Assembly: GCA_019058445.1 (NCBI GenBank)
Contig: JAHPZA010000004.1
Coordinates: 418,184 to 482,183 of the forward strand
Direction: 5' to 3'
Source of the DNA: Promethearchaeota archaeon
GTDB lineage: Archaea > Asgardarchaeota > Lokiarchaeia > Sigyniarchaeales > SOKP01
DNA length: 64,000 nt
In this document: positions 34,147-61,093 of the stretch, piece after piece
How the letters are laid out: each line of letters starts with the position of its first letter
How positions within the stretch are numbered: position 1 is the stretch's first letter
Made by a program: the position numbers and the translations under genes
Notes under the pieces: generated by a model
Told to the model about the DNA's origin: nothing
What the model saw: only the letters and a program-made list of their open reading frames with translations
Databases searched by the model: none

Positions 34147-35145
34147 ATTATTAAGAAAAGAGCTATAGCAATTATTATTATTTCATGTTTTAGTATAGCT
34201 GTTATTGCAGGAGTTGGAACTTATTATTGGACGTTGAATGTTGAAATTGATTCGGACGATGATGATGATAATGATGATACACATGATTCGGGACCAAAAA
34301 TCAATATTATAGACCATAATTGCGCTCATTTAGAAGATTTAAAAAGCATTCCGATTGGATGGATAAATGCTGCTAAGGCAAATTTAAATATAGCTTATGG
34401 TCATACATCCCATGGGAGTCAATTAACCACTGGAATGGATAATTTGGATCCTTTTATGGGGGGAAATGATGTTTATATTTATGGATCAGATGGAGGCGGA
34501 GATGATACGAAACTTGAATTTTACGATTATTATGGTGGATTCGGGGGTGCTTTAACAACAACCGAGGCTCATGATCTTGGCAATCCAAATGACGATGCAT
34601 GGGCGGCTGCTACTGAGGAGTATTTAGACCATCCTAGTAATCCCGGAACGAACGTTATAATGTGGTCATGGTGTAATATAGGAGGTCACAACATTAATGC
34701 CTATATTACACATATGGAATATCTTATTTCAGCCTATTCTGCGGGGGGTTCAAAAGGGAGGACGGTTGCAACGGAAGTTACATTCATATTCATGACTGGG
34801 CACGTAGATGGGCAAGGAATAGGAGGAACAAATAATTTACAGAATGAACTTATTCGGGATCATTGCAGGACCCACAATAGAATATTATTTGATTTTGCAG
34901 ATATAGAAAGCTATGATCCTGATGATAATTATTTTCTTGATAGAAATGTGAATGATGATTGCAGCTATGATGGGGGAAATTGGGCAATAGAATGGCAAAC
35001 CACTCATAATGGTGTTGATACTGAACCAAATGGTGGAAAATGGTATTCATGTTCTTCAGCTCATTCCCAACCTTTAAATGCCAACTTAAAAGCATATGCT
35101 TGTTGGTATTTATTTGCGATATTAGCAGGTTGGGATGGGAACTAA
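34147..35145 (+). CDS. Membrane-anchored secreted protein, possible SGNH-like hydrolase
   Basis: ORF track starts at TTG 34234; in-frame extension from ATT 34147 adds IIKKRAIAIIIISCFSIAVIAGVGTYYW (signal anchor). Motifs IAYGHTSHGSQ, MWSWC, FDFADIES. Confidence 0.75.
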   Translation: MIKKRAIAIIIISCFSIAVIAGVGTYYWTLNVEIDSDDDDDNDDTHDSGPKINIIDHNCAHLEDLKSIPIGWINAAKANLNIAYGHTSHGSQLTTGMDNLDPFMGGNDVYIYGSDGGGDDTKLEFYDYYGGFGGALTTTEAHDLGNPNDDAWAAATEEYLDHPSNPGTNVIMWSWCNIGGHNINAYITHMEYLISAYSAGGSKGRTVATEVTFIFMTGHVDGQGIGGTNNLQNELIRDHCRTHNRILFDFADIESYDPDDNYFLDRNVNDDCSYDGGNWAIEWQTTHNGVDTEPNGGKWYSCSSAHSQPLNANLKAYACWYLFAILAGWDGN

Positions 35146-35198
35146 TTAAAAATGAATTGAGGTTGCAAAAATTTCCGATATCCTAAAATATTTCGAGT

Positions 35199-36368
35199 TT
35201 AATTTAAAGGAGGTTTACTTTTAGCCTCTGTTTTCTTTTCCTTTTCAATCTTAAATGGTTTTACAGGTTTTGATTCGTCAAATGCTGAATTGCACACCCA
35301 GCATGCATTTTCTAAATTACTTAATGCGGTGGAACAATCTACGCAATAAATCGCCTCGCAATTCGGACAGATATAGGTAAGCCTTGATGTTTTACCTTTA
35401 CAAACTAAACATATCTTTTGTTCTTTATAAAATGTAATCTCTTCTTCAGTTAATTTTTTGGGTTTAATTTGAGTAATATGACTCATAAAATCCTGTAGTT
35501 TATCCATTTTCATTCTTTTTATTCCTAATAATTCTATTTCATGTGATTTTAATACATTTATTTCGCGAGAAATGGCATACAGAAGCATAAAAACATAGAG
35601 AGAAATAGCAACTAAAATATACATTAAGATAAAGAGGGATGGTTGATATGTAAAAATCACATATAAGAGAGCAATGATAACGATTGAAGATATAGCATTT
35701 AGGGCTTGCTCTATTATTCCTTTAGATATAGCAATAAGTGTTCCAAGAATAAAAAACAGTGCTGGAAATGAAGGAGATATAATTTTTAATTCTTTTACCA
35801 TAAAAGTAGCGAGAAAATATCCAATCCATAAGAGGAGGACTCCTATCAATGTATGGGCGGTAATTGTCTGAAAATCCCTCCTAGAGCGTTTAGAATATAA
35901 CAAAAATAAAGAAAAGAGAACTAAAATGATAATCCCTAGAGCAATCCAAAAGAAGCTCATTTCAATAATGATAATGACTAAAAAGAAAAAGCTTAAGAGG
36001 GTCATCAAATATTTATTCCGTCTTGTAGCTTTTTCAAATGTAAAAAAGAATAAAATAAATCCTATAAAAACGCTAATATATCCCCCATGAATTAAAATCT
36101 CATATGTACTGGTAGTATTAGTAAAATTACCGTAATATGAATGACCAGAATAACTTCCGCCTATAAAATAGCTACTAAAATATTCAAATATTCTTGCAGT
36201 TGCGAGTCCAAAAAAATTAAATGCAAATCCATGCATCATCAATCTTTCGCTTTTTGATTCCCTATAATATCCGCTATATAAGTAATATATGCCGCAAAAA
36301 ATTAGAATAGCTATTACTATCGACCAGATAAACCGATTAAACGGATCAAAAATTATATTCTCTGTTAT
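35199..36368 (-). CDS. Multi-TM membrane protein with C-terminal C4C4 RING-like zinc finger
   Basis: ORF track starts at 36242; extension to ATA 36368 adds the first TM helix. CLVC-x10-CPNC-x4-CVDC-x10-CWVC. Confidence 0.8.
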   Translation of the reverse strand: MTENIIFDPFNRFIWSIVIAILIFCGIYYLYSGYYRESKSERLMMHGFAFNFFGLATARIFEYFSSYFIGGSYSGHSYYGNFTNTTSTYEILIHGGYISVFIGFILFFFTFEKATRRNKYLMTLLSFFFLVIIIIEMSFFWIALGIIILVLFSLFLLYSKRSRRDFQTITAHTLIGVLLLWIGYFLATFMVKELKIISPSFPALFFILGTLIAISKGIIEQALNAISSIVIIALLYVIFTYQPSLFILMYILVAISLYVFMLLYAISREINVLKSHEIELLGIKRMKMDKLQDFMSHITQIKPKKLTEEEITFYKEQKICLVCKGKTSRLTYICPNCEAIYCVDCSTALSNLENACWVCNSAFDESKPVKPFKIEKEKKTEAKSKPPLN

Positions 36369-37138
36369 TTCAAATCCCTCATCATATTTTTTCTTTTTTC
36401 ATTATAGAATATTCCCACATGTGTTAAAAAAAGCTTCTTAGTCCATTCGGGTAAGACAAATCCTGCATAGAATTCAACTGAACTTAATATTAAAATCAAT
36501 CTAGTAATTGGTAAAGTGATGTAATTAAGCGGAACTGAAGCATCTAATAGGGCTCCAATAAGAAAAGATAATAATCCTATTAGAATTAATTTTCCTTTTA
36601 ATTTAAGTTCTGGATCGTCAGATTTTAACAGATCTAAACTAAAAAGCATTCCAGTAATTAAGAGAATAATAAACACAGAAAGAATATAAAAAATTAAAAA
36701 GGCTTTATATTGGACATCTACGATTCCTTGAAGTTCACCGAGTAGAGTGATATCTGTAAACAATAAATAAAAGAATATTATTTCGAATACAATTCCATAA
36801 ATTGAAGCGATAATTAAGATTGATTGTTGTTTGTTTTTATACATTAAGTCAGTGATCCCGGCAAGCCAAATAACTATGAGTAAAGGGATTAAAACATCTC
36901 CAAATATCAAATAGATTTGAATTCCAAGACCTTCACCTGTTGCGAGAGCCACTAAAAATGAAATACTGCTTGGATACCAAGGAGATGCGATTCCCATCCA
37001 AAATATTCCGATTAAAAGAAATTCTCTTTGTTTATATTGGAAATACTTCGAAGCAATATTGATCCCTACGATGATATTTGTGGTAACAATAATAATACTG
37101 AGGGTTCCATTTAAATAATCGAGGGGTTCTAGGATCAT
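36365..37138 (-). CDS. 7-TM hypothetical membrane protein (paralog of 28932-29678)
   Basis: GIFWMGIASPWYP, KGKL....G.LLD, GFVLP. Confidence 0.8.
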   Translation of the reverse strand: MILEPLDYLNGTLSIIIVTTNIIVGINIASKYFQYKQREFLLIGIFWMGIASPWYPSSISFLVALATGEGLGIQIYLIFGDVLIPLLIVIWLAGITDLMYKNKQQSILIIASIYGIVFEIIFFYLLFTDITLLGELQGIVDVQYKAFLIFYILSVFIILLITGMLFSLDLLKSDDPELKLKGKLILIGLLSFLIGALLDASVPLNYITLPITRLILILSSVEFYAGFVLPEWTKKLFLTHVGIFYNEKRKNMMRDLK

Positions 37139-37290
37139 GAACGGATTTCCTCTAGTGTACCTTCTTGTATAAATATCATTATATGAATCTGATATTTAAA
37201 TGTTAAAGTATTGTGAACAAGAATTTATGGAGAGGAAATAAAAGAAATAAAAGAGAAGTAATAATTAGAATATGTTTTTAAAATAATGTC

Positions 37291-37821
37291 TTATTGAGAA
37301 GAAGAAATGATCTTTTTCTTTTTTATTACATAAATTATGATTCCTATGGACAGCACTAACGAAAGCATCATAATTTCTACCTGATATCCGGGTATCTGGG
37401 GTAAATAATATCGTGAGAGTTTCTCATTTGCTTCCATTTTGAAGAAATCTGGACCATTTTTTTGGAGGATTACTTGTAGATAGTAGATTTGATCGTCTTC
37501 GGCAGTATAATTAATATGCGGTTTTGTACCGGCGTCATGAGCCACTTTATCCTTATTTATATCGCTGTCGATGGAATTATCCATGTTTACATGTGTTTCA
37601 GTTGGGCGTTCATCAAAAAGATAAAGATGAAAATAGCCATCTTCCCGTGCTTTTAAATCAACTTTAAGCTCATCATCTTCTTCTAGCTCCACTAAAAAAA
37701 AAAGAGAATTTCCATCATTCATTTGATCTTCAAACACAAATTTAGTTTTGGCAAGCGAATACGTAACTGGAAATAGCAGCAAGAATAGAATAGATGCTAA
37801 AAAAACCTTATAATAATTCAT
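37291..37821 (-). CDS. Surface protein with Loki-CTERM-like sorting signal
   Basis: Signal peptide; C-terminal IPGY + TM helix + KKKK. Confidence 0.8.
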   Translation of the reverse strand: MNYYKVFLASILFLLLFPVTYSLAKTKFVFEDQMNDGNSLFFLVELEEDDELKVDLKAREDGYFHLYLFDERPTETHVNMDNSIDSDINKDKVAHDAGTKPHINYTAEDDQIYYLQVILQKNGPDFFKMEANEKLSRYYLPQIPGYQVEIMMLSLVLSIGIIIYVIKKKKIISSSQ

Positions 37822-37881
37822 TATACCTTAAATAGAGTTTTTTTTTAAACTTAATATTAATTATAAAACCATTAACTTTTA

Positions 37882-38394
37882 TTAATTTTTTAAAATTTTA
37901 TTTCTAGCATAATTAATTAGCCCTTCAGCAGAAATAAGTTCTTGCAGGAATTCTGGCATCTTATTAATCCTATATAGTTTATTTGTAGTTATATTAGTAA
38001 TAATTCCCTTTTCATAATCAATTTCTAACTCATCTTGAGTGTTTATCTCCTCAATTTCTTTTAATTGAACTATCGGCAGTCCTATATTAATGGCATTTCT
38101 AAAAAAGATCCTAGCAAATGAAGGTGCTATAACACACTTAATTCCAGCAGCTTTAATAGCTAAAGGGGCTTGTTCCCTACTAGAACCACTTCCAAAATTA
38201 CTATTTGCAACAACAATTGAGATATACATTTCTTTTTTCTTCTGATGAAAATCAGGATCAAAATCCTCAAAACAGTGAGCAGCAAGATATTCTGGATCGG
38301 AACTGACTAAATGTCTTGCTGGAATTATTAAATCTGTATCTAAATTTTTTTTATTGTATTTTATTACTTTTCCTCTCATTTTTTTTAGCCTCAT
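37882..38394 (-). CDS. leuD: 3-isopropylmalate dehydratase small subunit
   Basis: NLDTDLIIPAR, NFGSGSSREQA, SFARIFFRNAINIG. Confidence 0.92.
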   Translation of the reverse strand: MRLKKMRGKVIKYNKKNLDTDLIIPARHLVSSDPEYLAAHCFEDFDPDFHQKKKEMYISIVVANSNFGSGSSREQAPLAIKAAGIKCVIAPSFARIFFRNAINIGLPIVQLKEIEEINTQDELEIDYEKGIITNITTNKLYRINKMPEFLQELISAEGLINYARNKILKN

Positions 38395-38399
38395 TAAGT

Positions 38400-39674
38400 T
38401 TATAAGTATTCTGGTGAAGTAATATAACCTCTAATAGCAGAAGCCGCAGCAACAGCCGGACTAGATAAATAAACTTCACTTTCTACATGACCCATTCTTC
38501 CGATAAAATTCCGATTAGTGGTTGAAACTGCTCTTTCTCCGGCAGCAAGAATACCCATATATCCGCCCAAACATGGTCCGCATGTTGGTGTTGATACTAC
38601 CGCTCCAGCATCAAGAAAAATTCCAATTAAACCTTCTTTTATGGCCATAAGAGATATCGCTTGAGTTCCAGGAATGATAATGCATCTTACTTTAGGATTT
38701 ACCTTTTGATTTCTCAAAATTTTAGCAGCGATTCTTAAATCTTCAATGCGGCCATTAGTGCATGAGCCAATGACACTTTGGTTTATTTCAATCTTCATGC
38801 CATCAACTTCAGAAATGGGCTTAGTATTTTCAGGTAAATGAGGAAATGAAACCTGTGGTTCTATTTTTCCACATTCAAACTCAATGATATCATCATATTC
38901 AGCATCTTTATCGCTTGCATACTTTTTATAACTAAATTTTCCAATATTTTCTAAGTAGGTTTCAGTAATTTTATCTGGAGCAATAATTCCATTTTTTCCG
39001 CCTGCTTCAACTGCCATATTACACATAGTAAATCGATTTGCCATTGATAGATTTTCTATAACTTGTCCAGTAAACTCCATGGCTTTATAGGTTGCGCCAT
39101 CTACACCTATTTTACCAATTGTATATAAGATTAAATCTTTTCCTGAGATCCATTCATTGAGCTTCCCTGTATAAATAAATTTGATTGAATTGGGAATTTT
39201 AAACCAACATTGCCCTAAAGCTAAGGCTACACCTAAATCAGTGGAACCTACCCCTGTAGAAAAAGCTCCAAGAGCGCCATAGGTACACGTGTGAGAATCT
39301 GCACCTATAAAAAGTTCTCCAGGTAATACTAAGCCTTGTTCTGGAATTAAACAATGTTCTATGCCAACGCGTCCTATTTCAAAATAATTTACGATCATTT
39401 TTTCATGTGCAAAATCTCTTAAAATTTTACATTGTTCTGCAGATGCTACATCCTTATTAGGGGTAAAATGGTCGGGTGTTAGTATAATTCGATTCTTATC
39501 GAACACGCCTTTTCCGGTTCCTTCTACGACTTCATTGAAAACTTCTATAGCTATAGGAGCTGTGATATCATTAGCTAGACATTTATCAACATTTGCAAGG
39601 ATAAAATCACCAGCAGAAGCATTTTTGTTATCGCAGTGATCACGTAGAATCTTTTCTGTAATTGTATATCCCAT
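38400..39674 (-). CDS. leuC: 3-isopropylmalate dehydratase large subunit
   Basis: [32 protein letters not shown]. Confidence 0.93.
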
Positions 39675-39829
39675 TTAATCCAAACCAATATAAAGTTAAA
39701 TTTAAGTTATGTTTTTAATCCTTATCAATAATACATTCTATAAATCTTTTATTCATTAAAATGAACAAGATTGAGATATTTCTATAAGATAAACAATTAA
39801 ATTGGTTTTATAGATTAGCTCTTCAATTT

Positions 39830-40270
39830 CTAGTAGAATTTTACATTGAAACGAGAGCGAATTTTTTTCTTATAAAAATGATCAAGATAGAATAGAATAC
39901 CTATAAAAAAACCTACAAACATCCAAGCAAGAAGTATAAGAATATAAAAATTTATTTGATAAAGAAAAAATGTTAAAATAAATAAATAAGATAATAATCC
40001 ACTTAAAAATATAAATAATAAAATTCTTCCAATTATCTTATTTAATTTAACGAAATATTTTTGATCATTATTGTTAAGTGAGTTAAAATGTCTTGGACAA
40101 AGTCTTGCCTTGATGATGCTTTTAGCGCATTTATTACAATACATCGTTTCACATATTATACATTTAACATATGATGGACGAGGATCCCTCCATCCTCTTG
40201 CCTTTAGTGTTTTCCCACATTTAGAGCATTTTCCTACCACTGTACCTGCGATGATAGCTGCAAATATCAT
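39830..40270 (-). CDS. Zn-finger (RING/B-box-like) 2-TM protein
   Basis: CSKC...CIIC-x4-CNKC...CPRH followed by two TM helices. Confidence 0.7.
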   Translation of the reverse strand: MIFAAIIAGTVVGKCSKCGKTLKARGWRDPRPSYVKCIICETMYCNKCAKSIIKARLCPRHFNSLNNNDQKYFVKLNKIIGRILLFIFLSGLLSYLFILTFFLYQINFYILILLAWMFVGFFIGILFYLDHFYKKKIRSRFNVKFY

Positions 40271-40537
40271 TGATTTTGCAAAATATACTTTAGAATTGTG
40301 ATTATAAGAAAGAAAAGAGTGTTTTGATATAAAATATTTTTACTATAAATAGGTTTCAAGTCTTATTAATTATTTGTATAGGAGTGTAGAAAGCTAAATT
40401 AAAAAATAAATTGTATTTTAAATTTTTATTCCTTTCTATTAATATCATAAAATATGCTCATTAATTTATTTAAACTACCGTAGAATGGAGTCTAAATTAA
40501 ACATAATCGGTAAATATTTAGAACTGGAGAAAAAAAT

Positions 40538-42602: not shown

Positions 42603-42722
42603 GATTACTTAATTTATTCATTTGTATATGTGTATATATACACAAATAAATTTAAATTATTTGAATTATAGTTTTAACTTACAAAGAGTTAATATTAATT
42701 TAATAAGTTCAAGCAAGCTGAA

Positions 42723-43610: not shown

Positions 43611-43624
43611 TAAAGGATAAAAAA

Positions 43625-44938: not shown

Positions 44939-45057
44939 TTTAAATTCTTTTTACCTGCTTAGTCAATCTAAATTGACATCATCAAGCAGATTTTCACAGA
45001 AATGTAGAAATTCTTAAAAATGATTATGGAAATCTAATACTTAAAAATTATAATTTT

Positions 45058-46194: not shown

Positions 46195-46436
46195 TTAATT
46201 TGTTTCCTAAGTTTTATTTAAGAAGATTCATCCTTAATCGTTAAAAAAGAATAAATAAATTAGAATCCACTTGTTGATGTGGGAAATAGAAAATGGAAAG
46301 GTCGATGTGTCCATCTATGGACCAATGAACCAAATGTTTTTAATGATCTTCCTCAAGAATTCATTGATAATATCCCAGATTCTACTAAAAAAATCCTTAG
46401 AGAAAGAAATGTTCAAATTTAAGATAAAAGATACTA

Positions 46437-46468
46437 ATCATCCCCAATCACTTAACATAATTCAAATT
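46437..46468 (+). repeat. Degenerate copy of the lysA 3' end (IIPNHLT* vs VIPDHLK*)
   Basis: 25/32 nt identical to 44915-44946, including the stop codon and downstream bases. Confidence 0.5.
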
Positions 46469-48500: not shown

Positions 48501-48599
48501 TTAAATTTAATCTGTTGATTAACATATTATTTGTATAGAATCCTTTATAAGCCTTATTAAAAATCTTATAAAAGAGAATGAAAATAATATAAAGGAATT

Positions 48600-49835: not shown

Positions 49836-50051
49836 ATTGCTAATAATTCCATCACATCTCTTTTTAATAAATAAATAAAGAATAGCTACAATTTATCTTT
49901 TCTTATTATTCTATACTAATCTAAGCTATCCAGAGCTAGAGGTTATAATTTAGATTAGACCAAATCTTAAATACTAATTCGTTTACTTTTTTCTCAAGAA
50001 AATTTTATTATAATATTGTGAGGCCTTACAAAATTAGGGCGGTGGATTTTA

Positions 50052-53000
50052 TTGAGCGAAAAAGGGAATAATTTAAGCTTATCTAGAGAAAATTATAAAT
50101 CTATTTTTAAACTACTCCCGCATACATCATATATTTGGCAAAAACTTGAAGATGATTTAATTTTAATTGAATATAATAGAGCAGCAGAAAAATTTACTGA
50201 AGGAAAAATCAAATCTTTAATAGGTATCAAAGCATCAGAACTATACAAGGAAAGACCTATAGTTCTCGAGGACTTAAAACGTTGTGTAAGAAATCAAACG
50301 GTAGTTTCTAGAGAAATAGTTCATAAATCAGTTACTACAGGTAAGGAAAGAAATCTTATCAGATTTTATAAATTTATTGAACCAGATTTAGTGCTTGTTC
50401 ATTCAGAAGATATAACTAAACAAAGATTAGCTGAAGCATCTTTAAAAAAAGAGGAAAAAGAAAAGTCAATGATATTGGAAGCCGTATCAGATCATATTAT
50501 TTATTACAATACTGATCAAGACATTATCTGGGCAAATCAAGCAGCCATTGATTCAGTAAATTTATCATATAAAGAAGTAGTTAGTAAAAAATGTTATGAA
50601 ATTTGGCAGAATAGAAATGAACCATGCGAATTTTGTCCTGTTTTAAGAGCTTTAAAGACTGGAAAAACTCAGACTAGTGAAGCAAGGACTCCAGATGGGA
50701 GGGTATGGTTCGTAAGTGGATTTCCTGTATGGGATGATGATGGGAATATAATAGGTATGGTCGAAATTACAAGAGATATTACCGCCCAAAAATATGTGGA
50801 AGAAAATTTACGTCGGGAACGAGACATTTTAGGTCGGCTGACAGATACAAGCCCAGTTGGAATTACTTTAGTAAATAAAGATGGGAAAATAATTTTTGCC
50901 AATGTACAAGCAGAAAAGATATTGGGATTAACTAAAAATGAGATTACTCAGCTTAGATATAATGCTCCAAGTTGGAAAATTACAGATTATGATGGAAATC
51001 CTTTTCCTGATGAAAAATTACCTTTCCAAAAGGTGAAGTCTACAAGAGAGTCTGTATTTGATGTGAGGCATGCAATTGAATGGCCCAATGGCAAAAAATG
51101 TTATCTTTCTATTAATGCATCGCCTATATTCGATGAAAACAAAAATCTTGAGGGAATGGTTGCAACTATTGAAGATATTACTGAAAAATGGGTAATAGAA
51201 CAAAATCTAAAAGAATCTGAAGAAAGTTTTAGGACGATTACAGAACAGTCCTTAATGGGAATATGCATTATACAAGATTTTGAAATAAAATATATAAATC
51301 AACAGATGGCAGATATTTATGGATATTCTTTGGAAGAAGTATATAGCTGGCAAGCTAAAGATTTTTTTAAAGTACTGGTGAATGAATCCAGAGAATATAT
51401 TATTGAACAAATAAAAAAAAAACAACAAAGTGCTAAAGATGTAGAAACACGTTATATCTCTAAAGCAATTAGAAAAGACGGTAGCTTAATTTGGGTAGAA
51501 AATTATTCAAAATCAATAATTTATCAGGGAAAATCAGCAGATCTGCTTACACAAATCGACATTACTGACAAAATGAAAGCGGAACAGAGATTAATTGAAT
51601 CGGAAGGAAAATATAGAGATATGGCAGAACTTCTACCGGATGTTATTTTTGAAGCAGATTTAGAAATGAATCTTAAATATGTGAATCCTGCAGGATTTGC
51701 TATGTTTGGATATTCACTTCAAGAAATGGAGAATGGAATAAATCTTAAGCAACTATTAACAACTGATTCATTGAAAAAAGCTATAAAAAGAGTTAAAGAT
51801 ATTTCATTAGGAATATCTACTTCTCCGAATGAATACGAATTAGTCAAAAAAGATGGAAGTAAATTTTATGGAAGGGTTCATTCAAGATCCGTAATTAAAG
51901 ATGATAGAATAGTTGGATTCAGAGGTACAGTTACAGATATTACGGATATAAAGTTAGCAGAACAAAAATTAAAAGAATCAGAGGAAAAATATCGAATTCT
52001 TATAGAAAAATCATTGCAGGGGATATGCATTCTCCAAGATGTTAGAATTATTTTTGCAAATGAGGCTTTATCTGAAATCTTAGGATATAGTATTAACGAA
52101 TTATTATCATTTTCCAACGAGGAAATAATAAATCTAATACATCCAGATGATAGAAAATTAGTTTTTAATCGTCATATGGCACGTTTAGAAGGAAAATCAG
52201 TTCCTGCACGTTATGAATTTCGAGTTCTTAGAAAGGATGGAGTTGTTAGAATCGTTGAAATGTACGCTTCACGCATTAATCTTAATAATAAAACTGCTGT
52301 TCAAGAAGTTTTTATAGATATTACAGAACGTAAGAAGATTGAAGAAAAATTAAAAAAATCCGAGGAAAAATATCGTGAAGCATACAATCGAATTAACTTA
52401 TATAAGGACTTATTTACCCATGATATCAATAATATTTTCCAAAACATTTTATCCTCTAACGAGCTTGCCATGTTATATTCTAATATTCCAGAAAAATTAC
52501 AGGATTACGTTGAAGTTGCCAATCTTATAAAAGAACAAGTTTCAAGAGGATCAAAATTAGTATCAAATGTCCAAAAACTATCTGAACTTGAAGACGTTGA
52601 TAAGCCATTATATACTTTAGAAGTGTATAGTGTTTTAAATAATGTAATAAATTCAATTAAAAAGAGTTTTCTTCACAAAAAAATAGAAATCAATATTTAT
52701 TCTTCTGAAAATCAGTATCTTGTTAAGGCAAATGAGTTATTTTTTGATGTTTTTGATAACATTTTGATGAATGCTGTAAAACATAATAAAAATCTGACAA
52801 TTGAAATTCAAATTAAAATCTCACAAAATTTAATCGATGATATAAACTACGTGAGAATTGAATTTAGTGATAACGGTGTTGGCATACCAGACATTATGAA
52901 AGATGTTATTTTCCAGAGAGATGTAAAGAAAGAAAAAGCAAGTGGAATTGGATTAGGACTATTGTTAGTAAAGAGAATAGTGGAAAGTTATAAAGGATCG

Positions 53001-53075
53001 GTAAAAGTGGAAGATAGAGTTCTCGGAGATTGCTCAAAAGGAAGTAATTTTATAGTATTAATTCCAGGGTCATAA
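50052..53075 (+). CDS. Multi-PAS sensor histidine kinase
   Basis: About six PAS/PAC repeats (DIT..K..E), H-box HDINN, NAVKH, DNGVGI, GIGLGL; no TM helix. Confidence 0.94.
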   Translation: MSEKGNNLSLSRENYKSIFKLLPHTSYIWQKLEDDLILIEYNRAAEKFTEGKIKSLIGIKASELYKERPIVLEDLKRCVRNQTVVSREIVHKSVTTGKERNLIRFYKFIEPDLVLVHSEDITKQRLAEASLKKEEKEKSMILEAVSDHIIYYNTDQDIIWANQAAIDSVNLSYKEVVSKKCYEIWQNRNEPCEFCPVLRALKTGKTQTSEARTPDGRVWFVSGFPVWDDDGNIIGMVEITRDITAQKYVEENLRRERDILGRLTDTSPVGITLVNKDGKIIFANVQAEKILGLTKNEITQLRYNAPSWKITDYDGNPFPDEKLPFQKVKSTRESVFDVRHAIEWPNGKKCYLSINASPIFDENKNLEGMVATIEDITEKWVIEQNLKESEESFRTITEQSLMGICIIQDFEIKYINQQMADIYGYSLEEVYSWQAKDFFKVLVNESREYIIEQIKKKQQSAKDVETRYISKAIRKDGSLIWVENYSKSIIYQGKSADLLTQIDITDKMKAEQRLIESEGKYRDMAELLPDVIFEADLEMNLKYVNPAGFAMFGYSLQEMENGINLKQLLTTDSLKKAIKRVKDISLGISTSPNEYELVKKDGSKFYGRVHSRSVIKDDRIVGFRGTVTDITDIKLAEQKLKESEEKYRILIEKSLQGICILQDVRIIFANEALSEILGYSINELLSFSNEEIINLIHPDDRKLVFNRHMARLEGKSVPARYEFRVLRKDGVVRIVEMYASRINLNNKTAVQEVFIDITERKKIEEKLKKSEEKYREAYNRINLYKDLFTHDINNIFQNILSSNELAMLYSNIPEKLQDYVEVANLIKEQVSRGSKLVSNVQKLSELEDVDKPLYTLEVYSVLNNVINSIKKSFLHKKIEINIYSSENQYLVKANELFFDVFDNILMNAVKHNKNLTIEIQIKISQNLIDDINYVRIEFSDNGVGIPDIMKDVIFQRDVKKEKASGIGLGLLLVKRIVESYKGSVKVEDRVLGDCSKGSNFIVLIPGS

Positions 53076-53339
53076 TTAGGCAATATTACAATTAAATTCT
53101 GAGAAAAATTTATTTAGTCTGGATGAAAAGAAGGATAATATAAGCCAAATTTATTTTTTATTTTAAAAAAGTTTTTAGGCATACAAAATTATAAAAGTAT
53201 CGATCTACAAATTCTTAAATATAAAATTTTTTTCAGTATATTCATACGACAATTTTACCTTTATTAATATAAAAAATAATGGGGCTTCTCTGTTATTTCA
53301 AGTAGGTGTAATATTATTTAAGTCCGGAGGTGTCATAAT

Positions 53340-53723
53340 ATAGCAGCAAATATACTCATTGTTGAAGATGACCTATCATTACAGAGGCTATATGAGATGA
53401 TTTTGAAAACTTCTGGATTTAATGTAATAGGAAAAGCAAACAACGGGGAAGAAGCGGTACACTTTTATGAAACCAATTCATCAAGTTTGGATGTGATACT
53501 AATGGATCATAGAATGCCAATTAAAAATGGGATTGAAGCAACAAAAGAAATTCTTGAAAGGAATAATAAGACAAAAATTATTTTTACAAGTGCGGATAAA
53601 AGTATAAAAAAAACAGCTTTATTAACGGGAGCGATTAGTTTTTTAGAAAAACCTTTTAGTTTTGCTGATTTAGTAAAAGAAATTGAAAAAGTTCTAAAAG
53701 CAACTAACCTCTCCGCTAATTAA
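53340..53723 (+). CDS. Stand-alone response regulator (CheY-like receiver)
   Basis: ILIVEDD lies upstream of the track ATG (53397); ATA 53340 follows GGAGGTG. MDHRMP..NG, TS, KPF. Confidence 0.92.
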   Translation: MAANILIVEDDLSLQRLYEMILKTSGFNVIGKANNGEEAVHFYETNSSSLDVILMDHRMPIKNGIEATKEILERNNKTKIIFTSADKSIKKTALLTGAISFLEKPFSFADLVKEIEKVLKATNLSAN

Positions 53724-53774
53724 TATTTAGAAAATTATAATTTTATTAAACCAGTTTGTCATTTTAAAAAAGTA

Positions 53775-54770
53775 ATGGATATCTTAGACAAATTTCAAGG
53801 CTCTTTGATGGGAGTAGCAATAGGAGACACACTTGGACGTCCCTTTGAAGGCAAATTAAGAACAGAAATCTATTCTATTTTCACTAATTTTGAAGATTTT
53901 ATTCAAAATAAAAAAAATTTATTCAAAACATATACCGATGATACACAACTTACATTACATACAGCAGAGGCTTTAATTAGGGGTAATGGATTTAATCTTA
54001 ACAATTTTATTTCAGAATATGTAAAGTGGTTAGATGATCCTCCAATTGGAGCGGGTTATGGCTGTATTTCTTCGATTAATAAGTTAAGATATGGTGTACC
54101 ATGGGAAAAGGCAGCTTCCAATTCTGGTGGAAACGGTACTGCTATGCGAATAGCACCCGTCGGATTATTTTATTATAAAGACTTAAAAGGATTAAAATCT
54201 GCGGCCATAAAATCGAGCGTTCTAACACATTCACATCCTGCAGCCTCAGCAGCTTCAATAGTTATAGCTAGAGCTATTGCATATTTAATTGATAAGGATC
54301 CAAAGATTAGGTTTTCTGTGGACCAATTTTTTGATGTAATCATATCTTCTATAGCTAGTTCTCAAGAGGAAATATGGGAAGAATTTATTGAATCATTAAA
54401 CAAATTAAAATCAAATTTACATGTTTCAATTGAAGCTGGTTTGATTAAGTTTTCTCAAATTGGAGTAAAATCACCGTTCTTTATCGAAGATTATTTAGGA
54501 CATGCTTTTGTCCATCCATATGCTATTAGCACAGTTATTTGTTCAATATTCCTTTTTTTGAAAAAGTTAACTTCATTTAAGGATTGTATTTTCGAACTTG
54601 CTACCGCTGGAGGAGATAGTGATACCGTAGGGGCTATTGGTGGTGCTTTAGCAGGAGCATATTTTGGTTTAAAAAATATCCCTAATGATTTAATAAAACT
54701 AGTTAAAAATTATAAGAAAATCTTAAAAATTAGTGAAGAGCTTTATAATACTTTTAATGTGCGATATTAA
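53775..54770 (+). CDS. ADP-ribosylglycohydrolase (DraG/ARH family)
   Basis: G.AIGD.LG, YTDDTQ, GNGTAMR, THSH, GGDSDT.GAI.G. Confidence 0.93.
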   Translation: MDILDKFQGSLMGVAIGDTLGRPFEGKLRTEIYSIFTNFEDFIQNKKNLFKTYTDDTQLTLHTAEALIRGNGFNLNNFISEYVKWLDDPPIGAGYGCISSINKLRYGVPWEKAASNSGGNGTAMRIAPVGLFYYKDLKGLKSAAIKSSVLTHSHPAASAASIVIARAIAYLIDKDPKIRFSVDQFFDVIISSIASSQEEIWEEFIESLNKLKSNLHVSIEAGLIKFSQIGVKSPFFIEDYLGHAFVHPYAISTVICSIFLFLKKLTSFKDCIFELATAGGDSDTVGAIGGALAGAYFGLKNIPNDLIKLVKNYKKILKISEELYNTFNVRY

Positions 54771-54771
54771 T

Positions 54772-55422
54772 CTAATTTAGTTTTTTGTTTATATAATTTT
54801 TCAATTTAATTAAATAAACTGTCTCAAATTTTGAGGATTTAATTACATTAAAGAATATATTTAACTCTTTTTGGCATGCTTTGCAAAATTTAGAGGGTTT
54901 TTTATCAACATAATAGACGCTACTTGAAAATTGCATAACACAGTCATTATCACAGTGATGTAGGCCTAAAGTGTGTCCGATTTCATGTATCGCCTCTTTC
55001 AATATTCTTTTTTGTTCCCTCTTCTTCTTTGTTCTTCTATTGTAAAATTGTTCTCTAAGCCGTGTAATGGACACTATTGACACTCCGGGGGAATCTAAAT
55101 CCTTTCTTGTTCTCGCAAGTCCAAAAACAAAATGATAAGGTTTCTTATTTTTGCTTATAGAGAAGATATCTTTATCTAATATCCCAAGGGTACAAAATAA
55201 CTTGTTGCTTTTTACATAATATTCCAATTTTCTTAAAATAGATTTTCCATAATACTGTTGTCTTTCCAGAATGTAATCAGTTTCATCTAAAGGAAACATT
55301 TTAGGTAGAATATCTACTGATACAATGAAATTTTTAAAGAATCTATTTAAGTGCTTCTGTAAATATTGCAAGATTTTACCATCTAAATCTCCTATTTGCA
55401 CCAAATAGACCTTTTTTTCCAA
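54772..55422 (-). CDS. amzA: Archaemetzincin (peptidase M54)
   Basis: FVFGLA, KEAIHEIGHTLGLHHC...CVM.FS, FCKAC. Confidence 0.88.
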   Translation of the reverse strand: MEKKVYLVQIGDLDGKILQYLQKHLNRFFKNFIVSVDILPKMFPLDETDYILERQQYYGKSILRKLEYYVKSNKLFCTLGILDKDIFSISKNKKPYHFVFGLARTRKDLDSPGVSIVSITRLREQFYNRRTKKKREQKRILKEAIHEIGHTLGLHHCDNDCVMQFSSSVYYVDKKPSKFCKACQKELNIFFNVIKSSKFETVYLIKLKNYINKKLN

Positions 55423-55607
55423 ATTTCAACCTCAAAAAAATTCATTTTATTCTGCTCTAGAGATATAAATGAAATGTTAAACATATTATTACCGCTTTTG
55501 ATTCATAAAAAAATAAAATTGATAAAATATCATTAATTCTCTTAAAAATAAATTAAAATTTAGAATTAAAAATTTTTATTTAGTTTAACATTTCCCTCTA
55601 TAATAAT

Positions 55608-55710
55608 GGGAGGGTGGTCTAGCCTGGTATGATTCTTAAAAGAAAAACGCTTTAAGTATAAATCTTGGTTTGGGACCAAGGGGCCGGGGGTTCGAATCCC
55701 CCCTCTCCCA
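55608..55710 (+). tRNA. tRNA-Pro(UGG) with a 29-nt non-canonical intron (55634-55662, position 25/26)
   Basis: Acceptor GGGAGGG/CTCTCCC, anticodon arm CTTGG-TTTGGGA-CCAAG, T arm GGGGG-TTCGAAT-CCCCC; BHB motif at the intron ends; CCA not encoded. Confidence 0.93.
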
Positions 55711-55783
55711 TTCTTCTTTCTTATTATTCTCTTTTCCGCAGATTGAGTTGATTTAATGAACCCATTATCAATAGAAGACTATT

Positions 55784-56083
55784 TTATACATTCTCAACGT
55801 TTACCAACACCTCTTCCTCAATAGTGTTTTCAGACTTAAAGTAAATTTCTGGTATAAGCTCATTAATAGTAGAAACAAGTGAAAGTAGAATTGCAGGACT
55901 TTTGGATGTTATCTTATAATATTTATGCAATCTAATTCGTTCTGAAACTTGAATATTTATTTTGAAAAATTCGAATAATTGGATTAGGTCATCTTTAATT
56001 TCCTTTTTTTTTTGGATCCATACGGATATTGTTTTATTCTTTTTATCTAGTTTCTTATTTTGAATCTTTATTTTTAAAATCAT
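55784..56083 (-). CDS. Hypothetical protein
   Basis: 99 aa ORF filling the intergenic space. Confidence 0.65.
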   Translation of the reverse strand: MILKIKIQNKKLDKKNKTISVWIQKKKEIKDDLIQLFEFFKINIQVSERIRLHKYYKITSKSPAILLSLVSTINELIPEIYFKSENTIEEEVLVNVENV

Positions 56084-56220
56084 AATAATACATTATCTGG
56101 ATATAATTTGAAATCAAATAAGAGATTAAATTATTTATTTAAGAAATTATAAAAACAAGGAGTATTTTTCTAAGTTTAAAAAAAATGCTAAAAAAGCTAT
56201 TTTTAATTTAATTTTTAGAA

Positions 56221-56793
56221 TTATTTAGCAGGCTTATTCTTCAGTTTTCTAATTAATAGAGTCAAAACAGCTAAAATTATCCAAATAAAAATTATACCCA
56301 TTAATATAAATTTTACAAGAGCAAAACAACTGTGAGTTATTGCCCATGTGTCAGGAAACCCTTGAGGATCGGTGAGCATTAATAAAATAAATACATTTTC
56401 CGTAGCATCACAGCACGCAGAAATAACTCCAAAAATGGCACTAATATATCCCATTTTTCTCCATCCTGAATCTTCATCGAATTTCCGAGAGATATAAAGT
56501 GACAAACTGAAATATAAAGTTCCATATGCAAGCATATAAGGGTAATCTAGTAGCTGAGCAATTCGATAAAGATCTATTTCTGCTGAACTCATTGTTCTAA
56601 GATGTGATTTTATAGTCGCTCCTGAGAATGAGAGTTGACTTTCAAAGACACTCACGGGATAATTAGAAATTATGTAATAATAATTGAGAATCGGATATAC
56701 AATTAGATATAAAATAATACTGCTAATTAGCAATATTTTAGTTTTTTTAGGGGAAGGTTTATCGGATAATTTTTCAAGCAAAATAATAATCAA
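56221..56793 (-). CDS. 4-TM hypothetical membrane protein (tandem paralog 1)
   Basis: YPV..FESQLSFSG, LDY, CD..EN, HSCFAL.KF shared with the next ORF. Confidence 0.82.
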   Translation of the reverse strand: MIIILLEKLSDKPSPKKTKILLISSIILYLIVYPILNYYYIISNYPVSVFESQLSFSGATIKSHLRTMSSAEIDLYRIAQLLDYPYMLAYGTLYFSLSLYISRKFDEDSGWRKMGYISAIFGVISACCDATENVFILLMLTDPQGFPDTWAITHSCFALVKFILMGIIFIWIILAVLTLLIRKLKNKPAK

Positions 56794-56943
56794 CTATGAT
56801 ATGATTTGTATAAATGTAAAACACTAGGACAATCTTATTAATAAATATTATTAATGTCTTTGGATCCTTTTTACTAAGATCTTATGAGAATATCTGATAT
56901 GAAAAATAGTACAAATAAAAAAAATGAATTTTGGTATAATACG

Positions 56944-57501
56944 CTATTTCTTAGTGGATCGTTTATTTACAAGGAGACTAATGAGTGCTAAAATTATCCA
57001 TATAAACACCATTCCAAACAAGATGAATTTGGCCAGAGCAAAGCAGCTGTGAATTATAGCCCAAATATCAGGAAATTCCTGAGGATCTGTAAGCATTAGC
57101 AAGATAAATAAATTTTCAAGTCCATCACATATCGCAGCTGTAATTCCAAAAATAGCAACAATATAACCAGAATTTCTCCAACTTGTGTTTTCTTCAAAAT
57201 TTCTTGCGATTGTTAAAGCTAAAGAAAAATATAAAGATCCATAGCCGACCATAAGGCCATAATCGAGAATTGTCCAGATTAAATAATAATTTAATTGCTC
57301 AGTATTCATTGTGCGAAAGTGAGACTTAATAATTGCGCCACTAAATGACAATTGACTCTCGTAAAAACCTACGGGATACTTAGATAATTCATAAAAATAG
57401 TTCATGAGTATCATAAAAAAGAAATATAGTATGAGTCCTAAAATTATCATTATTTTAGTATTTTTTTTAGAAGGCTTTTCTGATAACATTTCCAATACCA
57501 T
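56944..57501 (-). CDS. 4-TM hypothetical membrane protein (tandem paralog 2)
   Basis: Same motifs as 56221-56793. Confidence 0.82.
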   Translation of the reverse strand: MVLEMLSEKPSKKNTKIMIILGLILYFFFMILMNYFYELSKYPVGFYESQLSFSGAIIKSHFRTMNTEQLNYYLIWTILDYGLMVGYGSLYFSLALTIARNFEENTSWRNSGYIVAIFGITAAICDGLENLFILLMLTDPQEFPDIWAIIHSCFALAKFILFGMVFIWIILALISLLVNKRSTKK

Positions 57502-57574
57502 ATAATCATCCCTCTTATTGTTAAATTTTTTTAGACTAGAATATAAAAAAATTTTTGGTGATATAAATTAATTT

Positions 57575-57844
57575 TTACTTTCTCATCCGTTTTAATTCCA
57601 TTGTAATTGCATTCATCCTATCCGGGCATTCTACTTGAATTACATCAGTATCAGGTCCCCAAGGAAAATTACCGCCAAATTGAAGTGTACTTATCGTTGG
57701 AAAAATATCATGATAAAAAATACCACATAATCCATTTGCTTTGTGAACACTTAATTCTATTTCATCGCCCACTTTATGATGCGCACTGCAACGTCCTTTA
57801 ATATCTTTAACAGTTCCTACAATTTTAAATATTTTTTGAGAAAT
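57575..57844 (-). CDS. TIGR04076-family small Cys protein
   Basis: Extension beyond the track start (57772) gives KIVGTVKDIKGRCSAHHKVGDEI...LC..FYH.IFP...GG.FPW...CPD; ATT 57844 or ATA 57847 follows GGTGA. Confidence 0.8.
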   Translation of the reverse strand: MSQKIFKIVGTVKDIKGRCSAHHKVGDEIELSVHKANGLCGIFYHDIFPTISTLQFGGNFPWGPDTDVIQVECPDRMNAITMELKRMRK

Positions 57845-57879
57845 TATTTTTCACCTTTGATAATTTTTTTTTCAAACAT

Positions 57880-57896
57880 TCAAACGATTTGTTTGA
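57880..57896. promoter_or_regulatory. Inverted repeat TCAAAC-N5-GTTTGA, candidate TetR operator
   Basis: Perfect 6-bp dyad just upstream of the TIGR04076 gene, next to a TetR gene. Confidence 0.45.
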
Positions 57897-57979
57897 TATT
57901 ACGAAAAATAATTGAATTAACTTTATAAATTTTATGAAAAATGAATAGATGCTAAATAAATATATCAAGTTATTGGAAA

Positions 57980-58579
57980 TTATTTCTTCATTCCTTTAAG
58001 TATTAGAGAAACAGTGAAGACTATTTCCTCGTTTATCTTAGAAAAATCAATATCCGTAATTTTAAAAACATTGAGATTTCTAACTGCCTTCATTTTAATC
58101 GCATCAGCAATAGCTAATATACCTTTTGCTATGCGATATGAATCACATTCTTGAAATACCCCTTTATTAACACATTCATCTATTATCCCACCAAGAAAAT
58201 CTACTTCTAACTTAGCCAAAAATTCACCTAATTGTTTGAAGATGGGTTGCTTTATTTGAATTATTTCTACTGTAATTGATGCTAAAACTGGAACATTTAA
58301 AAAAAAATATAATCGCTCTTCTAAAAATGTTAAAATTTTCTCTTCGCAACCCTTTAATCTCTTTAGTTTAGATTGAATGGCATCAAAATAATCTGCTTTT
58401 TCTTTAAGTACAACTTCATTGAAAATTTTGTCTTTATTTTTAAAATAATGGTAAAGCGACGTTTTATTTAACCCAACTTGCCTCCCTATATCTTCCATAG
58501 TCGTTTTTTCATAGCCAAAACGTGCAAAACATAGTCTAGCAGCATCGATAATTTTTTTCTTTTGTTCTTTTCTTTTCAT
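57980..58579 (-). CDS. TetR/AcrR-family regulator
   Basis: IIDAARLCFARFGYEKTTMEDIGRQVGLNKTSLYHYFKNKD. Confidence 0.93.
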   Translation of the reverse strand: MKRKEQKKKIIDAARLCFARFGYEKTTMEDIGRQVGLNKTSLYHYFKNKDKIFNEVVLKEKADYFDAIQSKLKRLKGCEEKILTFLEERLYFFLNVPVLASITVEIIQIKQPIFKQLGEFLAKLEVDFLGGIIDECVNKGVFQECDSYRIAKGILAIADAIKMKAVRNLNVFKITDIDFSKINEEIVFTVSLILKGMKK

Positions 58580-58739
58580 TTTATTAGGATCGATGTTATC
58601 TGAACAATTCGATTTAATTTTATATTTCTTATGAAAAATAAATATTCAATCTTTTTAATAAATTGTTTGATAATTTGAAATAATTCTTAGAATATTAAGT
58701 AGAAAAAAATATTGTTTTAAAAAAGAATAAAAAAGTCTC

Positions 58740-59924
58740 TTACTTTTTAAATCCTAAATTACCGAAGTATATTTTTTTAAGCATTTTTATGGATGATTTC
58801 GACAAATTTCTCTTCGTCTTCTCGATTTTTAAGGTTAAAATCATACTTATGATCCCGATTAACGTTTTCACTGCAATTTTAGCCTGATATTTTTTATAGA
58901 GCATTCTAAGAACGAGCCCTATAACAACAAAGATTGGAATAAAAAAGAACCAAAAGTTTATCACGTTAAATTGATGACGTATTGGAACGAAAAATAAGAG
59001 ATAATGTGCTAAATATATTGTTAAAGAATAGTAAGAGAAGTAAAACAGAAATCGATAATTTTTTTCGGTTTTTATGTGTTCTTCAAGATAAATACCGATT
59101 GAGAATATTACAAGTTGAACTCCACAAGAAAAGATTGCCCAATAAAAATTAGTGGGATGGATTAATACCTTAATATCATAGTTCGGATACCACACCCACA
59201 ATCCAAAAATTATAAGTATCGAACCTATAGATAACGAAGGATATAAAAGTTTTTTACATATTTGTTCTTTCCTTTCAATTGGGTTTTTAGTCTCGCTAAC
59301 TTCCAATAGTATATCTCCAACAACTGTCCCATAAAGAAGAAATGGAAAGAATCCTAAAATTACATCTTGATCAGACGAGTGGAATAAGATATGATACAAT
59401 ACACCGTAAATATTTAACTGCCCTGCATAAATAGCCAAATAAGAGAATAATATATGATTAGCAATCCAAGATATTCCCGAAATGCAAATTCTTGTCAATT
59501 TAGATGTGTTTAGGAGTGGAACAGTTAATAATAGTGAGATTCCAATTGTGAACAAAACAAACCAAGTCCATATATACCCGGGATCCATCAAAGCAATAGC
59601 GATGCACGTATTGAAGATGAGCCCGATTAATACTATTAACAAAGCACGAAAGATAAATCCATTTTTTACCATTTCTAAAGAAAAAGCATCTGATTTTTCT
59701 GCCATCATTATTCCCTTTCTATATGATATAATACCGCTTACTCCTGAAACAAACAAGAATCCTGCTGCCCCCACCCATGAAAAAAGAAAAATTAGAAAAT
59801 ACCATAACCATCTGCTATTTGGGTGAATCCACCAGTCCATAAGATGTCCACCAATCATGTAAAACATAGCAAGTCCCCGAAATATATCAATTGTCTTAAA
59901 TCTTTTCTGCGCCATAAAAATCAT
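58740..59924 (-). CDS. HGSNAT/DUF1624-like membrane acyltransferase domain protein
   Basis: RFKTIDIFRGLAM....H, FLFVSGVS, SLTIYLAH. Confidence 0.82.
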   Translation of the reverse strand: MIFMAQKRFKTIDIFRGLAMFYMIGGHLMDWWIHPNSRWLWYFLIFLFSWVGAAGFLFVSGVSGIISYRKGIMMAEKSDAFSLEMVKNGFIFRALLIVLIGLIFNTCIAIALMDPGYIWTWFVLFTIGISLLLTVPLLNTSKLTRICISGISWIANHILFSYLAIYAGQLNIYGVLYHILFHSSDQDVILGFFPFLLYGTVVGDILLEVSETKNPIERKEQICKKLLYPSLSIGSILIIFGLWVWYPNYDIKVLIHPTNFYWAIFSCGVQLVIFSIGIYLEEHIKTEKNYRFLFYFSYYSLTIYLAHYLLFFVPIRHQFNVINFWFFFIPIFVVIGLVLRMLYKKYQAKIAVKTLIGIISMILTLKIEKTKRNLSKSSIKMLKKIYFGNLGFKK

Positions 59925-60019
59925 TTAATCTTAATTTGATGAAAAATAAAAGCAGTTTATGATATAAATAGCTATTGAATTTAATAAGATTTAAAAATAG
60001 AATATGATTGATTAATTAA

Positions 60020-61093
60020 TTAGTTTAATTGCTTTTTTACTTCTTTAGCAATTTTTTCTGTCTTTTTATCCTTGATCCAATATCGAATCTTCTTGGTTCT
60101 GAGTAAATTTTGAATTTTTTCATTTAATTCATTTAGTTTCTTTCGATCTTGATCAGATAATTGTGGAACTTCTTCTAAAATCTTTTCTTTTACTTTTTCA
60201 ATTTCTTGTTCAATAATTGGAATATCTATAGGTTCCTTTTCTCTTTGAGTTATTCTTTTTCTCAAAATCTCTTTTATATTTTTTATCCATCCCTCAATCC
60301 AGGGAAAGGCCCCTTCTTTTTTTGGATCAATTATCTCGATATCTTTCCGATCTACAATTATTAAATCGTCAGGACAGCTGTTTTCACAAGCACCGCAATA
60401 AAAACAAGCATCTTCATTACACGCAATTTTCCCAAATTTAGCTATTTCCTCCGCACTTTCGGGTATAAACCATGATTCAACAGGACAAATATTTACGCAT
60501 GCTTTGCAACCCAGAGGATCGCATTTATGGAGCATATTCTTTTTGATGATGACTTCGCCTTCTATTGGAGAATCGACTTGGAAGCATTTTGTAGGGCATT
60601 CTTTTTGGATTTTATAAAATTCTTCGACATGATTTCTCTCTCGGACCTTTAAGCATAACTGACAGATTTCATTATTCAGATCTTCTTCACATTTTTGAAA
60701 ATCAATTTTATAGAACTTTCCAATGGAAGGAAACTCATCCAGATTAATATGCCCTTCAGGTTCTATATTTTCATGAAACGCGTCTGTAGGGCATACTATA
60801 GCACATAACATACAGTAACAACATTTTTCATGATCAATTAAGAGTTTTGGATTAGACTCGTCTAATATATTTTGGGCGATTTCAGGAATTGGACCGAGTT
60901 CAATCGCATCAACCGGACATACCATTTTACATAAACTGCATCCTATACATTTTTTAATGTCGTATGTGAGTTTTTTATTTACATCTTTATATTTCCAGTT
61001 GAGAATGAATTGATCTGGGCTAATATCTAACCCTTTTTCGATTTCTTCTTCAATTTCCTTGTGGGCTGTATCTTCTGAAGATGTTTGCGTAAT
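60020..61093 (-). CDS. Polyferredoxin, FwdF-like
   Basis: The first cluster motif CIGCSLCKMVCP is cut by the track start (60925); extends to ATT 61093. Further CxxCxxCxxxCP motifs follow. Confidence 0.82.
   Translation of the reverse strand: MTQTSSEDTAHKEIEEEIEKGLDISPDQFILNWKYKDVNKKLTYDIKKCIGCSLCKMVCPVDAIELGPIPEIAQNILDESNPKLLIDHEKCCYCMLCAIVCPTDAFHENIEPEGHINLDEFPSIGKFYKIDFQKCEEDLNNEICQLCLKVRERNHVEEFYKIQKECPTKCFQVDSPIEGEVIIKKNMLHKCDPLGCKACVNICPVESWFIPESAEEIAKFGKIACNEDACFYCGACENSCPDDLIIVDRKDIEIIDPKKEGAFPWIEGWIKNIKEILRKRITQREKEPIDIPIIEQEIEKVKEKILEEVPQLSDQDRKKLNELNEKIQNLLRTKKIRYWIKDKKTEKIAKEVKKQLN

Follow-up and report, generated by a model that had tools for sequence, protein, structure and literature searches.

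Initiation of translation at AUU or AUA codons led by a Shine-Dalgarno (SD) motif is known from several bacterial genes, i.e., E. coli infC and pcnB (AUU) and S. aureus infC, ccpN, citZ (AUA) and cvfC1 (AUU) (PMC4705826, PMC13009471), with the AUU and AUA starts of S. aureus combining extended SDs with exact placement (PMC13009471). Moreover, both bacterial IF3 (AUU) and eukaryotic eIF1 (an AUG in poor context) are autoregulated via their own weak starts (PMC4705826). For Asgard archaea, a 2026 paper remarked that the deposited AtubA tubulin of the Kariarchaeaceae is too short and that a 'rare' ATT lies upstream at the distance of a ribosome binding site (PMC13394414). According to a 2020 review, SDs appear to be uncommon in MK-D1 as annotated (PMC7531240). 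The present analysis concerns a 64,000-nucleotide stretch of a Lokiarchaeia genome (hereafter the window; G000:C4:418184-482183, from a genome of 4.61 Mb in 10 contigs with ca. 31% G+C), in which six genes lack a canonical start codon where their N-terminus is expected. It is very probable that these six predicted starts, together with those of at least about 80 genes genome-wide, reflect translation beginning at AUU or AUA (occasionally AUC) behind an SD, as a regular and conserved habit of this Lokiarchaeia family, and that the gene for the initiation factor aIF1 behaves likewise.

As in the bacterial cases, the AUU or AUA codons stand behind a strong and well-spaced SD, they are conserved among relatives, and the gene of an initiation-fidelity factor uses such a codon. 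However, bacterial genomes contain two to four such genes, whereas at least about 80 are estimated here, and the fidelity factor is IF3 in bacteria but aIF1 (the eIF1 homologue) here, where the evidence comes from sequence. Eukaryotic eIF1 autoregulation (PMC4705826) offers a second parallel, in that a homologous factor would be translated from a start that the factor itself disfavours, although eukaryotes, which scan for their start codon, rely on the Kozak context of the AUG, whereas the present case involves a near-cognate codon behind an SD and a feedback that we infer. In AtubA, like here, an upstream ATT restores a lost N-terminal element (the first β-strand), but that case concerns one gene of another Asgard lineage and carries no genome-wide claim. 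Indeed, our literature search returned no genome-wide report of such starts for Asgard archaea, the sole single-gene remark being that on AtubA (PMC13394414). While NCBI translation table 11 formally permits the same codons (ATT, ATC, ATA and CTG) as initiators, common gene finders consider only ATG, GTG and TTG. The general rate reported for such starts in bacteria is far below the frequency estimated in this genome. The comparison supports a mechanism of a known kind, i.e., SD-led near-cognate initiation, with a frequency and conservation that we have not found described for any cellular genome.

Candidate start sites of six genes in the window

The layout of the six genes was read from the raw sequence and from stop-to-stop reading frames, and each stop-to-stop protein was compared with up to 40 related genomes, in which the DNA was read at the aligned N-termini. 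ATT, ATA and ATC are collectively referred to as ATH, and ATG, GTG and TTG as canonical starts. The 16S rRNA 3′ end in this genome is ...GGATCACCTCCT, and the expected SD is a piece of AGGAGGTGATCC; spacing (or aligned spacing) is counted from the last G of GGAGG.

The initial annotation had claimed that five genes possess an apparently required N-terminal part ahead of the first canonical start, with ATT or ATA behind an SD-like motif, and had named cdhD as a possible sixth. All of these sites could be located (Table 1), and an SD-like motif lies 5′ of the ATT or ATA at each of the six. An in-frame stop is found 0-10 codons 5′ of the ATT or ATA (0-6 at five genes, and 10 at the gene for a membrane protein with a RING-like domain, TM-RING), and the first canonical codon after this stop comes only 13-56 codons further on. 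The SD duplex energy amounts to -15.2 kcal/mol for the receiver gene and to -6 to -8.5 kcal/mol at four other sites, while the GGTTGA of the polyferredoxin gene is a weak SD (weaker than -6 kcal/mol).

In the CheY-like receiver gene, an in-frame TAA is present at 53319-21, and a canonical start first appears at ATG 53397. Initiation at the ATA would restore the ILIVEDD stretch, as had been proposed, and the protein started there matches Pfam Response_reg positions 1-110 from its residue 5 onwards. The same codon is ATA in two genomes of the same genus and in three other genera (G003, G002, G012, G019 and probably G016), ATC in G008 and ATG in five genomes (G009, G006, G004, G022 and G024), with each of these starts located 6-9 nucleotides behind a GGAGG-like motif. 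At this position two close relatives differ solely by TCA-ATA vs. TTG-ATG. A public JGI call for a receiver of at least 90% identity is 127 amino acids long and begins with MAANILIVEDD, which equals the N-terminus predicted here. Directly upstream of the receiver gene lies the gene for a 1000-amino-acid multi-PAS histidine kinase, and at orthologous loci a kinase-like open reading frame (ORF) likewise ends just 5′ of the receiver SD; kinase and receiver are probably an operon pair.

For the polyferredoxin gene, the TGA of GGTTGA is the in-frame stop, and no canonical start comes before ATG 60925 within the CxxCxxCxxxCP motif, placing the beginning of the first Fe-S motif upstream of the first ATG and bearing out the claim that ATT 61093 restores it. 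None of the 14 orthologues, which represent at least seven genera, has ATG as the aligned codon; each has ATT or ATA, two of them being ambiguous due to an in-frame GTG within the SD. Among 120 public polyferredoxin homologues, 3-84 residues precede the first Cys motif (mode 49-50), a scatter that is expected if gene callers fall back on the next canonical codon. In the gene of the TIGR04076 family, GGTGA is followed by AAA ATA ATT, with GTG 57772 as the first canonical start. When started at the ATT, the protein matches NCBIfam TIGR04076 positions 7-90 from its residue 11 onwards, which puts the profile start near residue 5 and includes the proposed extension in the profile coverage. Its homologues show the same layout, i.e., an SD with embedded stop, two codons and then the start, with ATG in place of ATT.

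For cdhD, 12 out of the 13 family-f1 orthologues shown retain the ATT, behind GTGA-N6 (AAGTGT instead in G008), and the same codon is ATG in G014 and G030 and TTG in G029. Moreover, the 13 codons preceding the first ATG are conserved at the protein level, with synonymous changes in the DNA. For the secreted protein, with its first canonical start (TTG 34234) downstream of the membrane anchor, the initial annotation had left the choice between ATT 34147 and ATT 34150. That an upstream ATT restores the anchor was upheld, and the orthologues favour the latter codon over the former, as the counterpart of ATT 34150 is ATG in G015, an ATT right behind a TAG in G011, and TTG in G008. In the TM-RING gene, the ATA indeed shares bases with the upstream TAA (36367-65), and GAGGG lies 7 nucleotides 5′ of the ATA (aligned spacing of 8). 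The resulting N-terminus ITENIIFDP corresponds in the alignment to MTEVMIWDP (ATG) of the G006 and G009 paralogues and to ITTVLVFDP (ATT) of the G003 orthologue, and all members of the family carry the DP..R motif at their N-terminus. This TM-RING family is a genus-restricted set of paralogues with eight matches in the genome (the window locus plus seven others) and ten in G003, and no match outside the genus at E<=1e-20.

The search for ATG at the same position in relatives, as advised in the initial annotation, was thus successful for the receiver, TIGR04076, cdhD and secreted-protein genes, and for paralogues of the TM-RING gene. A reassignment of AUA to Met, as in mitochondria, would let internal AUA codons align with Met in homologues; internal ATA and ATT codons occur in the alignments at Ile/Val/Leu positions, e.g., in the receiver ILIVEDD (no systematic count was made). 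Overall, the orthologue comparison supports predicted ATH initiation at all six sites, cdhD included.

The anticipated shortening of proteins by gene callers was also found, with five of the six window proteins being cut in the public calls. Exact look-up on the same contig (498,135 bp) yielded a receiver of 108, a CdhD of 384, a secreted protein of 303, a TIGR04076 protein of 65 and a polyferredoxin of 301 amino acids, the latter beginning with MVCPVD. The TIGR04076 call starts at GTG 57772, and that of the secreted protein at TTG 34234 without the anchor. These calls embody the alternative that translation starts at the first downstream canonical codon and that the upstream in-frame stretch is an untranslated leader, and for cdhD this would cost only 13 residues. 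With such starts, however, the receiver would lack β1 and its DD pocket, the polyferredoxin three cysteines of its first 4Fe-4S motif, the TIGR04076 protein its conserved Cys region, and the secreted protein its signal anchor. Moreover, the stretches in question are conserved as protein with synonymous changes, the internal canonical codons have no preceding SD, and comparable stretches genome-wide have coding codon usage (see below), making untranslated leaders highly improbable.

Apart from these genes, the window contains tandem paralogous membrane proteins that have the motif SQLSFSGA.IKSH.RTM in common (Table 1).

Table 1. Positions of the six genes with candidate near-cognate starts and of other elements in the window (nucleotide positions within the window)
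Feature	Positions	Strand	SD-like motif	Candidate start	End or stop	Length
CheY-like receiver gene	53326-53723	+	GGAGGTG 53326-32, N7	ATA 53340	stop 53721-23	127 amino acids
Polyferredoxin gene	60020-61105	-	GGTTGA 61105-61100, 6 nucleotides	ATT 61093	60020	357 amino acids
TIGR04076-family gene	57575-57855	-	GGTGA 57855-51	ATT 57844 (or ATA 57847)	57575	89 amino acids
Membrane-anchored secreted protein	34138-35145	+	GGGGT 34138-42	ATT 34150 (34147 less likely)	35145	
Multi-pass membrane protein with C-terminal Cys-rich (RING-like) domain (TM-RING)	35199-36380	-	GAGGG 36380-76	ATA 36368	35199	
cdhD, acetyl-CoA decarbonylase/synthase delta subunit	32647-33850	-	GTGA 33850-47, 6 nucleotides	ATT 33840	32647	397 amino acids
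Multi-PAS histidine kinase	50022-53075	+				1000 amino acids
tRNA-like element	55607-55711	+				
Tandem paralogous membrane proteins	56221-56793 and 56944-57501	-				ca. 185-190 amino acids

ATT and ATA behind SD motifs across the genome

In the genome-wide test, a codon was considered if it was in frame and preceded any canonical codon of its stop-to-stop ORF, if at least 100 open codons remained downstream, and if a canonical start was absent within 6-10 codons downstream. An SD was defined as a perfect 5-mer of AGGAGGTGAT and was counted upstream at each distance. For first ATGs, SDs peaked at spacings of 7-12. In the 5′ extensions, ATT and ATA had 24 and 21 SD cases, respectively, at a spacing of 9 vs. 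a background of ca. 3 per position, while the five other A/T-only sense codons, serving as a control, together had 13 SD cases in 5762 without any peak. When all 61 sense codons were compared at spacings of 8-10, ATT (41 observed vs. 14 expected) and ATA (36 vs. 12) gave by far the strongest SD peaks (p≈1e-8 each). Weak enrichment was seen for ACG (5 vs. 1.0) and CTG (4 vs. 1.0), and that of ATC was marginal. The relaxed third-position discrimination in this lineage that had been put forward in the initial annotation is supported as far as ATT and ATA are concerned, but the relaxation may not be confined to the third position, given the weak ACG and CTG enrichment and the ATC at some orthologous sites.

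A similar picture emerged from the 161 ORFs with an in-frame [AG]GTGA boundary, 57 of which have a canonical start as their third codon; among those without a nearby canonical start, the third codon is ATT or ATA in 23 out of 36. When 5-mers were replaced by the duplex energy to the 16S rRNA tail, the proposed genome-wide check yielded an ATT/ATA excess over the control codons of ca. 80-90 sites, compared to ca. 510 canonical starts led by an SD. This excess corresponds to at least 2% of the ORFs of at least 100 codons and to ca. 14% of SD-led starts, and it is a floor since short genes and weak SDs are missed and two of the six window genes fail the filters.

Coding potential pointed in the same direction. 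Specifically, 70 SD-led stretches between the ATH and the canonical codon had a median coding log-odds of 0.376, comparable to the 0.387 of true coding N-termini (p=0.51), whereas open non-coding stretches (n=17) had a median of 0.148 (p=2e-5). Pfam searches on 20 further candidate loci were decisive at two only, since most domains begin downstream of the first canonical start; at these two loci, a FAD_binding_3/DAO and a Usp domain begin at residues 2-4 from the ATH, with the first canonical starts 98 and 42 codons further on. These observations support ATH starts as a lineage-level habit rather than as isolated oddities.

Further clear ATH-started genes include those for a succinyl-CoA synthetase beta subunit (IRLLEYESKEVF; e.g., G000:C9:353497 on the + strand), a GPN-loop GTPase, a Gfo/Idh/MocA-type oxidoreductase and a universal stress protein, and two paralogues both begin with ISIDW/IIDW at an ATH.

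aIF1 and the spread across families

Inspection of aIF1, as suggested in the initial annotation, revealed that its own gene (SUI1; C10:8794-9123) lacks a canonical start ahead of the N-terminal zinc knuckle. The first canonical codon is a GTG inside the second Cys pair (CVC) of this knuckle, and an ATT is the fourth codon after the stop (TGTGA), at an aligned spacing of 12 that is worse than that of the other ATH genes. The layout AGGTTGTGA ... ATT is almost invariant across family f1. In ca. 36 aligned genomes of this family, most have ATT (two ATC) at the same codon and no ATG is present anywhere, while G013 and genus g8 are ambiguous because of an in-frame GTG (g8 having ATA). The start is ATA in families f5 and f7 and in one f2 genome, and TTG or ATG in f2 genus g14 and in family f6. 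Sulfolobus aIF1 rejects AUU in vitro (PMC4705826). Being the start-codon proofreading factor and itself predicted to be made from a near-cognate codon, aIF1 may exert an infC-like feedback on stringency via its own start codon.

The spread of the trait was assessed by applying the same SD test to equal-sized samples, comparing ATH at spacings of 8-10 with the background and with ATG at the same spacing. Contig C9 of the G000 genome (793 kb) had 15 ATH cases vs. a background of 3.5 (ATG 33), G046 from family f7 with aIF1 on ATA (795 kb) had 8 vs. 3.6 (ATG 38), and the closed genome G032 from family f2 with aIF1 on TTG (800 kb) had 4 vs. 2.4 (ATG 37). In these small numbers, the trait seems strongest in the family of the G000 genome and weak in G032; with three genomes only, a correlation of ATH use with the aIF1 start codon cannot be established.

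Spacing, codon strength and competing explanations

In the proposed mechanism, the duplex between the SD and the 16S rRNA 3′ end (...GGAUCACCUCCU) would place AUU or AUA in the P site at a narrowly optimal distance, and the initiator Met-tRNA (transfer RNA) presumably reads the codon with a third-position mismatch. Ribosomes would then initiate at the ATH codons with Met as the first residue and an efficiency below that of AUG, and aIF1 would be autoregulated. The spacing data fit with a weak codon that requires exact placement. For SDs without TGA, ATG was flat across spacings of 7-10 (27, 32, 27 and 32), whereas ATH was concentrated at 8-9 (4, 12, 11 and 5 for spacings of 7-10). For [AG]GTGA SDs, in which a spacing of 8 would bring the GTG in frame, 28 ATH were found at a spacing of 9 vs. 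5, 5 and 3 at spacings of 7, 10 and 12, compared to 54 vs. 24, 42 and 34 for ATG (Fisher p=9e-5).

The codons would not be weak if a dedicated or modified initiator tRNA fully paired with AUA and AUU, e.g., through a modified C34 as in mitochondria. The frequency and conservation of ATH starts agree with this possibility, as does mitochondrial tRNA-Met, which is reported to read AUA and AUU through f5C34 (PMC5048346). However, the narrower SD spacing of ATH compared to ATG and the retention of ATH, never ATG, in aIF1 across family f1 both fit a weak and regulated codon, and no such tRNA was found among the few tRNAs detectable in the assembly, so a fully pairing initiator tRNA has little chance of being the explanation.

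A start at the GTG within the SD-like GGTGA followed by a +1 shift into frame, or a mechanistic role of the in-frame TGA two codons upstream (termination-reinitiation), would account for the ATH of the [AG]GTGA class occurring almost only as the third codon after an in-frame TGA, while ATG is spread over spacings of 7-12. Nevertheless, ATH equally favours spacings of 8-9 where the SD contains neither GTG nor TGA, so that exact placement at the optimal spacing alone explains the [AG]GTGA pattern and no special role for the in-frame TGA is required. In addition, the orthologues put ATG at the ATH codon and not at the GTG, the reading frame of the GTG runs into a stop immediately, and at most sites that TGA does not terminate a preceding gene. 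On the evidence of the SDs lacking TGA, neither a GTG +1 shift nor a need for the in-frame TGA was accepted, and this family of explanations is very unlikely. Reading of TGA as sense, extending the ORFs upstream, was also rejected, as another stop lies within a few codons.

Finally, assembly or base-call errors, with ATG misread as ATA or ATT or a homopolymer indel shifting a real GTG or TTG out of frame, are extremely unlikely: although an out-of-frame GTG or TTG lies beside an A-run at the polyferredoxin and TIGR04076 genes, where a one-base change would restore the frame, ATT or ATA (or ATG/TTG) recurs at the same codons, within different surrounding sequence, in independently assembled genomes from other species and genera, which excludes sequencing error and rules out such an indel, and the 6-nucleotide spacers between SD and ATH are diverse genome-wide and not homopolymers.

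Initiation at AUU and AUA behind an SD thus remains the preferred reading, and several points weigh against it. The support for initiation at ATH codons is computational throughout. Three orthologue cases in the receiver and polyferredoxin comparisons are ambiguous because of an in-frame GTG or TTG within the SD, and the related genomes, while independent assemblies, are not phylogenetically independent samples. The genome-wide count hinges on the chosen SD definition and on the ORF minimum of 100 codons. Lastly, no clear initiator tRNA emerged from the assembly with aragorn (with and without introns), the Rfam tRNA model or anticodon-arm patterns; no more than 16-23 tRNAs could be detected across the 4.6-Mb assembly, which suggests that tRNA genes with multiple introns or in split form escape the standard tools. 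In the window, a tRNA-like element (Table 1) matches the Rfam tRNA model at positions 10-63 with 31.7 bits, and aragorn calls it an intron-containing tRNA with a nonsensical anticodon.

It is conceivable, though tentative, that near-cognate initiation constitutes a regulated layer of expression, in which aIF1, with a conserved AUU start that is not optimally spaced from its SD, would set initiation stringency by feedback, in which about a hundred AUU- or AUA-started genes (for metabolic enzymes, regulators and membrane proteins) would respond jointly to the aIF1 level, and in which the trait would vary between families along with the aIF1 start codon. If ATH initiation holds true, AUU and AUA starts would be used here far more than in any other cellular (non-organellar) genome for which we found a report. 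Research on Asgard archaea relies largely on predicted proteins. Should a few per cent of the genes start at ATT or ATA, gene finders limited to ATG, GTG and TTG would strip these proteins of N-terminal strands, metal sites and signal anchors, and predictions of domains, structure and localisation would be distorted, those for eukaryote-like proteins included. Moreover, the occurrence of this trait in close prokaryotic relatives of eukaryotes, coupled to a homologue of eIF1, would make the evolution of start-codon stringency directly testable.

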